From contig OX597836.1 of the NCBI GenBank assembly GCA_951406725.2, positions 8,618,001 through 8,682,000 of the forward strand: a stretch of 64,000 nucleotides of DNA, written 5' to 3'. A program made the translations under genes and the position numbers. Positions 3,291 to 42,793 of the stretch are shown here, one piece after another. This DNA is from Octopus vulgaris. Taxonomy: Eukaryota. A model generated the notes under the pieces. The model did not search any database. It worked only from the letters and a program-made list of their open reading frames with translations, and had not been told where the DNA came from. How positions within the stretch are numbered: the stretch's first letter is position 1; each line of letters opens with the position of its first letter.

Positions 3291-3374
3291 AATAAATCCC
3301 CAAAAGAACAAACACAAAAAACAACACGAGGACGTGGTACATGCAATGTATTAACAGACGCTCAGGAAAGGAAA
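3291..3374 (-). mobile_element. Truncated copy of the TA-embedded hammerhead-bearing repeat (no ribozyme part)
   Basis: AATCC..AAACA..AACAAC.CGAGGACGTGGTACA...GACGCTCAGGAAAG matches 11431-11512 and 34390-34470. Flanked by (TA)n on both sides. Confidence 0.75.
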
Positions 3375-4109
3375 TATATATATATATATATATATATATA
3401 TATATACATACATACATACATCATGCATATATATATATATATATATATATATATATATATACATACATACATGCATATATATATATATATATATATGTGT
3501 GTGTGTGTATGTATATATATATATTTACAGAGAGAGAGAGAGGGATTAACCTTATCTATTCATTATTCTTGACGTAGATTAGACGAAATAGAAATAAAGG
3601 TAGACATACACACACACGTATACACCTGCGCAAATACCCACACAATCCCAAACACACACACACACACACACACACGCACACGCACACACACACACACACA
3701 CACACACACACACTCACACACACACAGATAGACAAAGTCCGCAGAGATACAAGAAGAGCAACTGGTCGCACACACACGATAATCATATGTATATGTTTAT
3801 TGTGTGTGTGTGTATGTGTGTTTGTGTGTGTATTATGTGCTCGTGTGTAAAGGTGTGTAAAAGGTGGGAAAAAATGTACAAATTACAAACTGCAAAGAAA
3901 TATTGAAAAACGTCCGTCAAGCTTGTTGGTAACTGAATACTTTGTGACTTTTCAAATCCCGCCATTTTTAACAGATCGTCTTCTAGGGTTAAATTTCCTT
4001 TTGTTCAGCTCCGCTGCTATTCAGTAGAAGTCCGCTGACGTCGGCTTTTTGATGCCAAGAAACGAAAGAAATAAACGCCATCTTTTTTTTTTTTCAGAAA
4101 AACGATTAT

Positions 4110-4410
4110 ATATATATGTTCGTGTGTGTATGTATTCATAAATACATATATATATATATATATATATATGTATGTTCGTGTGTGTATGTATATATTCGTG
4201 TGTGTATGTATTCATATATATATATATATATACATATATATATATATATATATATATTTGTATGTCCGTGTGTGTATGTATTCATATATATATATATATA
4301 TATATATATATATATATATATATATATATATATATATATATATATATATATATATATATATATATATATATATATATATGTTCGTGTGTGTATGTATTCA
4401 TATGTATATA
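4110..4410. repeat. Compound minisatellite, ~5 x TATGTTCGTGTGTGTATGTATTCA separated by variable (TA)n
   Basis: The GT(T/C)CGTGTGTGTATGTA anchor recurs at ~4118, 4174, 4195, 4264 and 4380. Confidence 0.85.
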
Positions 4411-4899
4411 AAGCAAAGAAAATCGACGTATCTAAATAATAAAGAATTTGATGGCGGTGACGACAGGTAGGGGCCATTGAAAACTTGTTGATGAAACCTT
4501 GTTGGTAAAAAAAAAAAGAAAAAAAAGTGGGGTACGCAAATTTAAAAAGCAATTTAGTCAGATGAAGGATATTAAATTATAGAGACAGCACAAGCAAACG
4601 TAACCCTACAACCACCACCACAACCACCACCACCACCAACAACAACAACAACAACAACAACAACAACAGCGGCAACACAACCGTCGCCGCCACTGCCACG
4701 ACAATTCACATTTACTGCCCAACCTACCCGAATCAACTCCACCCACACGAGGCCCCTACCAAAGCGAATTAAAAAGAATGAAAAAAAAGGAATTCTAATA
4801 TGCCAAACCTAATTGTTATTGATAATGATGGCGTTTATTATTATTATTATTGATGTTGTTGTTGATGTTGTTGTTGTTATTATTACTATCATTTTATAA

Positions 4900-39639: not shown

Positions 39640-39990
39640 CAGTCTGGGTAGCGGAGCGTTGTGGATGGTCGCTGAGTGCGTTTTTCCCGCCGAGGTCGAC
39701 TTTGTTTTTCATCCTATCAAGGTGGATAAAATAAGTATCAGGTGAACACTTGGATCGATGTAATTTCTTTACTACCCACAAGGGGCTAAACACAGAGGGG
39801 ACAAACAAGGACAGACACAGGGATTAAGTCGATTACATCGACCCAGTGCGCAACTGGTACGTATTTAATCGACTCCGAAAGGATGAAAGACAAAGTCGAC
39901 CTCGGCGGAATTTGAACTCAGAACGTAGCGGTAGACGAAATACCGCAAAGCATTTCACCCGGCATGCTAACGATTTTGCCAGCTCGACTT
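39640..39990. mobile_element. Two SINE family B pieces in opposite orientation (+ ~39640-39765, - ~39765-39990)
   Basis: + strand CCGCCGAGGTCGACTTTG...TTCATCC. - strand copy with GAAAGGATGAAAGACAAAGTCGACCTCGGCGGAATTTGAACTCAGAACG...TGCCAGCTCG. Confidence 0.82.
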
Positions 39991-42609
39991 AATACCTACC
40001 CCGAAATTGCTGGTCTTGTGCCAAAAGTCGAAACCAATGTTATAAATCTTTTTCTGAGATCATCGTACGTCTTACCTTGTTCACTAGATCCAAAACTAAT
40101 CCCACATACATCCACCCTCTACGCCTGATATCATTACAGCAATGGCTGACGTGATGTCAACTCCCGTAGAAATTGTGTCTACCATCGTTTTTCAACCTTG
40201 AAATCATTTAATTCACACGGTTATACTTCAGTCTTCATCCACACTGTATTTTATATCGAATGTTTTCCAGAAGGAATTGGCTACGTCATATCTTCATCAG
40301 AATTAAATACATAGGATAACTTCGCCACGTTGACATTCTTCCAAGCTGAAAAATCAACGGCGCCATCGCCCGGCCAGTAAGACTGCCAGAGGTCGTTGAC
40401 TTGACGCAGTCTCTTCCCCAGAAGAATACTTCAATATACATACACATACATACATATACATACATACATACATACATACATACATACATACATACATACA
40501 TACATACATACATACATATGTATATGTGCGTACGTACATGCATGCATATACGTGCATACATACACACATGCATTCATCTACATGTATATTTGTGTGTGTG
40601 TGAGTTAATATATAGATATGGATATGTCTCTCTCTCTCTCTCTCTCTCTCTATATATATATATATATATATATATATATATATAGATAGATAGATAGATA
40701 GATAGATAGATAGATAGATAGATAGATAGATAGATAGATAGATAGGCAGACAGGTAGATAGATAGATTAATAGATGGATACGTATATATATATGTGCATA
40801 TATATATATACATATATGTTTCTAGATATATGTATATAATATATGGTTATGTTAGAGGGAGTGTAGGAAGAGAGAGGAAAAAGGAGATGAACATGTTTAC
40901 GTATATCTATCGATCTATCTATATATATATATATATATACACACACACATATATATATATATATATATATATATATATATATATATATATATATATATAT
41001 ATATATATATATATATATATATATATATATAGACATATATAAATGCATGTGTATATATGTATATGAGTGTATATACATGCATATATATATACATATCTAT
41101 ATATATGCATATTGATATATATATATATGTATATATATGTATACATACATACATGCATAATCATATATATACATACGCACACACACACACACACACACAC
41201 ACACACATATATATATATATATATGTATGTATGTATATATATATATATTCGTAAATACGACATTCCCTTAAACTAGTTTGTAGCTCTCACCCTTTGATCG
41301 TCCTATCAGCGCCATGTTACCTCATTCTTCTTATATCTCACGATAAACATTTACCCACAACAACATTCCTTTGTAACTCACCAATGCTGTTTCTATCTTA
41401 GACTTAACTGTTAGAAAAAGTATCTAAAAACCTCTTAAAAAGTCAAACTACCTCATCGCCCACTATCGCTTCGAGAATACGGCCATGTAATCGAGACGAC
41501 GAGGGCGCCTATAGTATATATGCGGTCATCAGACGTGCTAGAAAATACAGCTAAATCTCCCACGAATCGCAGGTGCTTATCGTCTCGAAAGCGGTAGGCG
41601 AATGTTGGGTACATTGGGGCTTGTTTGAGGCTCTCTGATTGCAAGTTGAGACGACCAGACCACGCTTGGAAGAACTTTGGTTATAGATCTCTGCAAAAGA
41701 GCTGATCTGTGGCCAAACAACAACAACAACAACAACAACAACAACAACAACAACAACAACAACAAAAGCAACAGCAACAACAATTACAGGAACGGCAAGA
41801 ACAGCAACTGATGGACAATAAACCGACAATATTGAATTCTGAAGAGGTTCCGAATATATATACGTATGTATGTTTGTATGTATATATATATATATATATA
41901 TAAATGTACATATGTATATATTTTTGCGTATGTATGTATATACATGCAGGTATATATATATATATATATATATATATATATATATATATATATATATATG
42001 TGTGTGTGTGTGTGTCTGTGTATGTATATATATATGTGTGCGTGTGTGTGTGTGTGTGTGCGCGCGTGTGTGTTGTGTGTGTGTGTATACATATATATAT
42101 ATTGTATGTATATGTATGTATAAATCATATACATAGGCACAGATGTGGCTGTGTGGTAAAAAGATGCTGCTTATCACATGGTTCCGGGTTCAGTCCCACT
42201 ACGTGGTACATTAGGCAAACGCCAGAACGTAAGCGAGCAAAACAAAATATAGGTTAATCATAAACTAATTTCGCTATTACTACTTGCGCAAATTAATTAC
42301 GTAAATGTCCGTAGCTCATCAGTATGATCGTCGTTGGAAATATAATTTGCAGAACTATACACGAGAAGACCGCATGAGATTGAACATGTATACAGTTCTA
42401 CCAATTACAGCTGGTATATATATGCATATGCATATATATATATATATCACACTTGCACAAACAAGCGCGCAGTGATATACATATATTAAAGTGAGTCCGA
42501 CGCTCTAACCACTGAGGCATATATGTGTGTGTGTGGGGTGAGTGTGTAACATTTACACACGCATATATATATATATATATATATATATATATATATATAT
42601 ATATACATA

Positions 42610-42793
42610 GGGAGAGTTTACGAAAAAAACAAAAGACGAAGACAGGTGGTGTACAAAACAAACAGATGTATTAGTATAACGCTCATGAATAGAAAAAGTA
42701 TTTTATGTTTCGAGCCTACGCTCTTCTACAGAAAGGGAGACAGAAAAAACAAGGAGAGAAAAAAATGTGTGTAGCGGCTAACGATCTATCGTG
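42610..42793 (-). mobile_element. Diverged TA-embedded hammerhead-bearing repeat
   Basis: Same layout as 11431-11630 (..GTGGT..ACA...GTATTA...ACGCTCA.GAA...GTTTCGAGC..GCTCTTC..CAGAAA). Minus strand CTGTAGA-A-GAGC-GTAG-GCTC-GAAA-CATA at ~42700-42735. Confidence 0.62.

Follow-up and report, generated by a model that had tools for sequence, protein, structure and literature searches.

Octopus repeats with a minimal hammerhead motif are probably truncated ends of a Penelope-like retroelement

Four short, related repeats lie in a 64,000-nucleotide (nt) window of the Octopus vulgaris genome (GenBank assembly GCA_951406725.2, contig OX597836.1, positions 8,618,001 to 8,682,000; coordinates below count from the first letter of the window). 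They are probably dead, 5'-truncated pseudo-long terminal repeat (pLTR) ends of an endonuclease-bearing (EN+) Penelope-like element (PLE), likely inserted into pre-existing (TA)n arrays. We observed directly that the copies are related, share a 3' end at TA arrays, have variable 5' ends, carry a conserved minimal hammerhead motif, and belong to a family of high copy number. The window itself is microsatellite-rich animal sequence (216 tandem-repeat rows). The copies are:

3291..3373, minus strand: 83 bp, the shortest copy; 3' part only, with no hammerhead; TA arrays on both flanks
11431..11628, minus strand: 198 bp, the longest copy; subfamily A; bordered by (TA)n at its 3' end and by (CA)n at its 5' end
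34390..34547, minus strand: 158 bp; subfamily A; bordered by (TA)n at its 3' end and by (TACA)n/(TA)n at its 5' end
42610..42793, minus strand: 184 bp; divergent, subfamily B; TA-rich arrays on both flanks

An earlier note on this DNA had claimed four related elements at these places, and the alignments bear this out: all six pairwise scores exceeded the best of 300 shuffles, with identities of 67 to 83%. Local identity was 127/153 (83%) for 11431/34390, 63/81 for 3291/11431, 58/82 for 3291/34390, 53/69 for 3291/42610, 97/139 for 34390/42610, and 117/175 for 11431/42610; thus the identity of the subfamily B copy with the two long copies of subfamily A is 67 to 70%. The pair 3291/42610 beat its shuffles narrowly (score 62 versus 57). 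A profile built from the four copies matched exactly those four in the window (E values of 2e-43 to 3e-17; next, 1.8), as expected by construction, so that the pairwise figures are the independent measure of relatedness.

Because the hammerhead sense of all copies is on the minus strand, the start coordinates in the earlier note are 3' ends; these do abut TA arrays, as it said, at distances of 0, 0, 1, and 5 nt, in a window of which 12.5% lies in a TA array or within 10 nt of one. The 5' ends likewise abut TA, TACA, or CA arrays, and for this reason insertion into existing arrays appears to fit better than a tail encoded by the element. All four copies share the 3' end and differ at the 5' end. 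The predicted hammerhead cut lies 100, 100, and 94 nt from the shared 3' end in the three copies that have a hammerhead; these three cross the cut, as copying of an uncut template would produce, and copy 3291 begins ~17 nt downstream of it. A common 3' end with frequent 5' truncation is the look of truncated, ordinary autonomous PLE copies, and the proposal that the family is non-autonomous is therefore not demonstrated by these ends. An ATG stands ~15 nt short of the common 3' end in copy 11431 (11431-11450, minus strand) and in one loose-end consensus, but not in copy 34390.

Three copies carry the hammerhead motif:

11527..11561, minus strand (copy 11431): intact minimal type-I hammerhead; 4-bp helix I, CUGACGA, extra A, GAAA, ACGU palindrome
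34486..34520, minus strand (copy 34390): hammerhead motif with U4-to-C, a GUC cut triplet, and one helix-I mismatch
42701..42734, minus strand (copy 42610): decayed hammerhead; A6-to-U, ACAU, 3-bp helix I, GUAG loop II

The motif is thus present in three copies, as claimed, but intact only in copy 11431, where helix I has the 4 bp that had been described and helix II has 4 bp (GAGC/GCUC) closed by a 3-nt loop. The extra A and helix II (GAGC/GCTC) occur in all three, and the loop changes (TCC, TCC, GTAG), again as reported. Reduction of helix III to the palindrome ACGT holds for two copies, the third having ACAU. Similarly, the expected cut after GUU or GUC applies to copies 11431 (GUU, between 11531 and 11530) and 34390 (GUC) but not to copy 42610, whose triplet is AUA; that copy fails our minimal-hammerhead descriptor, and its sequence predicts an inactive ribozyme. 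The descriptor found three sites in the window (11557 and 34516 on the minus strand and 27562 on the plus strand, the last in another family, described below) and no site in any of 200 block-wise dinucleotide shuffles of it. As for covariation in helices I and II, proposed earlier as a check, the outer helix-I pair is A-U in copy 11431 and G-C in copy 34390, a compensatory change at one pair only. A pair-counting alignment of five motifs mixed two unrelated families, with helix II out of register for the second, and only this within-family pair was used.

Structure prediction did not yield the active shape for copy 11431, either as a monomer or as a co-folded dimer. The minimum-energy monomer fold (-7.7 kcal/mol) keeps helix II and pairs the core with the palindrome; the fold with helices I and II has -2.7 kcal/mol. 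Rfam gave no hammerhead family on 11431-11628, nor on 27430-27670 in the second family, as would be expected for motifs that lack helix III.

The repeat stretch or part of it was found in 24 public sequencing runs (11 studies, four organisms), none recorded as RNA; eight contained at least half of its 18 words. Contigs of four of these runs (X1, X9, X4, and X8; ~76% of X1 was covered, and X9 is RNA by guess only) were aligned to 11431-11628 at 80% likeness. Recruitment amounted to 13,535 of 52.2 million records for X1, 3,219 of 6.6 million for X9, 9,993 of 35.8 million for X4, and 4,040 of 14.2 million for X8; the contigs were mostly 90 to 99% alike, with depth highest on the hammerhead. Since a single copy recruits 3,219 to 13,535 contigs per run, the family is high-copy with many divergent copies; the counts are not themselves a copy number. 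Loose ends of contigs run into (TA)n directly past the shared 3' end in 39 X4 and 4 X9 contigs, which extends the TA preference claimed for the window copies to the family.

Variants reaching 5% of depth, the listing threshold, occurred at seven places within 11527-11561 across the four runs. U4 was the sole catalytic position to show one (C in 33 to 48% of depth); both partners of the outer helix-I pair vary (G in 88 to 97% and C in 57 to 77% of depth). Across runs, variants amounted to 3 to 10% at N7, 2 to 6% at H17, and 3 to 7% on each side of a CpG at the border between loop II and helix II, with one of its two sides in helix II. No variant of at least 5% was found in the four runs at C3, G5, A6, G8, A9, the extra A, G12 through A15.1, the palindrome, or the three other helix-I pairs. 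The CUGANGA and GAAA cores with an NUH cut site were thus preserved in the majority of the recruited sequence. The apparent sparing of core CpGs was not given strong weight, since variation at control CpGs is 2 to 10%, near the listing threshold.

Pattern scans of other collections produced only chance matches. Viral contigs gave none; two matches in metagenome contigs both lay within a bacterial ABC-transporter gene, and one in prokaryote genomes was likewise attributed to chance. A looser hammerhead pattern matched 92 viral loci; of all 95 loci, the descriptor accepted only three and the family profile, at an E value of 0.1, none.

A second, unrelated hammerhead repeat, missing from the earlier note, is also present in the window:

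27420..27650 (approximate ends), both arms: inverted head-to-head pair
27557..27602, plus strand: right arm; its minimal hammerhead is intact (helix I of 5 bp, helix II of 6 bp, extra A, ACGU, GUU)
27463..27508, minus strand: left arm; its hammerhead has decayed (ACAU, disrupted helix II)

It has the same architecture as the first family, the extra A in each arm included, in an inverted arrangement typical of PLEs, and we count it in favor of a PLE origin. The pair folds as a long hairpin, on which plant microRNA models score below gathering, and an ATG within the hammerhead core opens a frame of ~25 codons. Two other hammerhead-like places were seen: an imperfect inverted repeat at 58380-58510 with a degenerate CTGATGA...GAAAC, possibly an old hammerhead relic, and 37906-37960 (plus strand), where CCGACGA is followed by a perfect GC-rich hairpin and later by GAAA, and which fails the descriptor.

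The comparisons that follow draw on parts of the cited papers and supplements. The Penelope link and the dimer-type minimal hammerhead proposed earlier agree point for point with the consensus of Cervera and De la Pena (2014, PMC4209133), whose minimal hammerheads have an unpaired base between positions 9 and 10.1, a G10.1-C11.1 pair, a 15.2-16.2 palindrome, and a short helix I. Our family shares with them the core CUGANGAH and GAAAN, the extra unpaired base, the G10.1-C11.1 pair, the loopless C-G palindrome, the short helix I, a U-rich lead-in, an NUH cut triplet (GUU/GUC), and the solitary copies. Neither the extra A nor the ACGT palindrome is therefore a peculiarity, both being standard for PLE minimal hammerheads; the short helix I and the solitary copies likewise fall within the 2014 description. 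In that paper, copies are mostly solitary and are ascribed to truncated PLEs, molluscan examples are included, and opposite-strand pairs occur; these lie 100 to 700 bp apart or closer, and the second family here is similarly inverted. Helix II has 4 bp with a 3-nt loop in our family versus 7 to 8 bp in Schistosoma, but 3- to 4-bp cases exist in the published list; the exact sequence is not among the rows compared from supplementary file 2, which are part of that list. Monomers showed no activity and dimers low activity in the same study; the review PMC6765202 credits dimer hammerhead work to Lunse et al.

A mechanistic parallel is offered by PAc, a Poseidon element of Anolis carolinensis and the only PLE to have been reconstituted in vitro (Frangieh et al. 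2024, PMC11167929). PAc is cut 26 nt into its open reading frame (ORF) and initiates reverse transcription 111 to 118 nt into it, which by subtraction puts initiation 85 to 92 nt past the cut. Its endonuclease prefers AT-rich DNA, and its hammerhead requires protein for cleavage; the portion of the paper cited here reports that no transcriptome sequencing (RNA-Seq) ends were found at the cut. Like PAc, our family has a hammerhead ~90 to 100 nt upstream of a fixed insertion 3' end, AT-rich targets, and insertions that cross the cut. The ORF of PAc starts inside the hammerhead, however, whereas our family has no ATG there and its open frame lacks a protein match. The suggestion that the ribozyme processes these repeats finds no support: three of four copies cross the cut, the fourth starts ~17 nt past it, and PAc ribozyme mutants insert normally in vitro. 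Rotifer pLTRs measure 181 to 218 bp, occur as solo copies and inverted pairs, and are capable of acting in trans; the initial codons of the ORF form the end of the pLTR in some PLEs (Arkhipova et al. 2013, PMC3846280). According to Li et al. (bioRxiv 10.64898/2026.07.22.740005), truncation has left just one terminal repeat of most PLE insertions.

The O. vulgaris genome has been annotated as already rich in PLEs, whose 190 families account for 6.83% of it (PMC13282606; also PMC8967140), and octopus representatives include Hydra-1_Obim and Naiad_Obim/Ovul (Craig et al. 2021, PMC8557442). Craig et al. reported a (TA)n bias in Hydra- and Naiad-clade PLEs and a microsatellite bias in Neptune. Our family resembles the Hydra clade in its (TA)n preference and in having a hammerhead near the 3' end, but Hydra hammerheads, the octopus one included, have a 3- to 4-bp helix III and a different sequence; and it differs from Naiads, described there as lacking a canonical hammerhead, in having a hammerhead. 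From hammerhead shape and microsatellite bias, our guess is that a Neptune- or Penelope/Poseidon-like clade is the most likely one. Five of six motif strings of the family (10 to 12 nt) had no match in the portion of the PMC8557442 supplement covered, where line breaks could hide one, and a 7-mer occurred only in unrelated contexts; the portion of the PMC13282606 supplement covered holds no matching sequence. A literature search on hammerheads and octopus, outside whose scope lie Repbase, Dfam, and external repeat libraries, found no paper on this repeat family.

If the four repeats are truncated PLE ends, the PLE literature suggests how they may have arisen. A full-length element elsewhere in the genome would supply the reverse transcriptase (RT)/GIY-YIG protein, which would nick AT-rich DNA. 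Reverse transcription would start on uncut RNA, from a fixed internal position ~100 nt past the hammerhead cut, and copying would run backwards through the hammerhead and usually halt after 80 to 200 nt. A hammerhead without its own helix III would cut only as a dimer, held by the ACGU palindrome, probably weakly and with help from protein. In solitary, decayed copies the hammerhead most likely does nothing.

Several observations weigh against this explanation. Neither an RT nor a GIY-YIG domain was found by Pfam beside any copy or in the 150 frames scanned of 252 non-repetitive open frames; the same search returned only DNA-transposase remnants and three weak hits. (A match to ABC_membrane was rejected as an artefact of SINE [short interspersed nuclear element] plus microsatellite sequence.) Other repeats in the window also adjoin TA arrays, and TA adjacency alone is thus not PLE-specific. 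Helix II is identical in the three motif copies and so yields no covariation, and the 80% identity filter together with the 5% listing threshold biases the contig data toward apparent conservation. No contig piece among those listed covers the whole 11431-11628 stretch. Finally, the two longest copies, 11431 and 42610, both open with CACG, 62 to 70 nt upstream of C3; this common start may be the defined 5' end of a short non-autonomous unit. A 53-residue open frame runs through copy 34390: none of 33 candidate proteins passed, and there was no match among 1.84 billion representatives, which is weak evidence against ORF overlap.

That common start is the chief argument for an alternative that we consider unlikely but worth weighing, namely, a discrete SINE-like unit of ~190 to 200 nt, derived from a PLE pLTR, self-transcribed, and mobilized in trans by a PLE protein; this is the reading of the earlier note minus ribozyme processing. 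The two copies that start at about the same place belong to different subfamilies, the copy number is high, and no ORF was seen; non-autonomous PLE derivatives are known in Chlamydomonas (PMC8557442), trans-acting pLTRs in rotifers (PMC3846280), and animal retrozymes derive from pLTRs (bioRxiv 10.64898/2026.07.22.740005). On the other hand, the common 5' stretch gives a weak alignment and could be fortuitous, two of the four copies are shorter, and X1 pieces 7 and 8 extend 10 and 39 letters beyond 11628, though possibly into flank rather than repeat; moreover, solitary minimal hammerheads usually arise by truncation (PMC4209133). The fuller picture, a ~190-nt SINE-like Penelope parasite homing to (TA)n, which would number tens of thousands of copies across several related species and retain a ribozyme working only in pairs, is in our view doubtful.

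We regard it as quite improbable that the copies are dispersed monomers of a non-LTR retrozyme, whose tandem arrays elsewhere would be transcribed, cut by the hammerhead, circularized, and re-inserted. Our family is like such retrozymes in being short, non-coding, and dispersed as monomers, which are frequent among them, and in its type-I hammerhead and relation to PLEs (PMC7229834; bioRxiv 10.64898/2026.07.22.740005). One X9 contig of 3,219 (depth 27.5) returns from 11619 to 11526 and so holds a partial tandem whose two hammerheads are ~99 nt apart, and X8 has two further go-back entries; yet partial tandems are typical of PLEs as well, all four window copies are solitary, and none of the seven listed joints connects the 3' end with the 5' part. 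At the 3' end, loose ends lead into (TA)n and not into a further unit. The window also contains no tandem units and no canonical hammerhead with its own helix III and loop, the form that goes with tandem retrozymes, whereas the minimal form is associated with PLEs (Cervera and De la Pena 2020, PMC7229834). In the retrozyme study of Li et al., one of nine dimers was cleaved. An accidental hammerhead-like motif in an ordinary repeat family, which the Rfam miss and the inactive predicted folds might suggest, is nearly excluded by its absence from 200 shuffles, the compensatory A-U/G-C pair, and the shared architecture of two unrelated families in one window, the second of which Rfam also misses.

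The window holds remnants of several other mobile elements. A Tc1-like transposase fragment lies at 8579-8941 (minus strand; Pfam HTH_Tnp_Tc3_2, E = 9e-15) and an ISXO2/Merlin-like transposase remnant at 9836-10363 (plus strand; Pfam PF12762, E = 1e-6). Frames at 22814-23150 and 48830-49090 (both minus strand) are truncated by (ATT)n and (TACA)n arrays; we take them to resemble the C-terminal restriction-like endonuclease of non-LTR retrotransposons, although they have no Pfam match. A SINE-like repeat with an exact 18-nt core, presumably akin to octopus SINEs, recurs at 11 sites from 2207 to 52528, often beside TA arrays, with one 163-bp tandem at 14256-14617. In the whole-window Rfam search, for which we considered the best 150 of 762 matches, a U6 small nuclear RNA match at 39197-39303 (minus strand) scored 52.9 against a gathering threshold of 44 bits; it looks degenerate, is followed by SINE-like sequence, and is probably a U6 retrocopy.

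The repeat family thus falls into the already described class of PLE minimal hammerheads, every supposed oddity being part of the 2014 description. With its sequence as a handle, an abundant short repeat of an invertebrate genome rich in microsatellites can be classed as derived from Penelope, and the two unrelated hammerhead families within 64 kb show how densely such motifs scatter. The family could serve in a search for RNA ends at the cut site, for which dozens of known families are equally suitable. It would carry greater weight only if a self-standing non-autonomous family, or trans-dimers that cut host transcripts, proved true: should the ribozymes indeed work in pairs, cleavage in trans could occur between transcripts that carry two copies or between two abundant transcripts.

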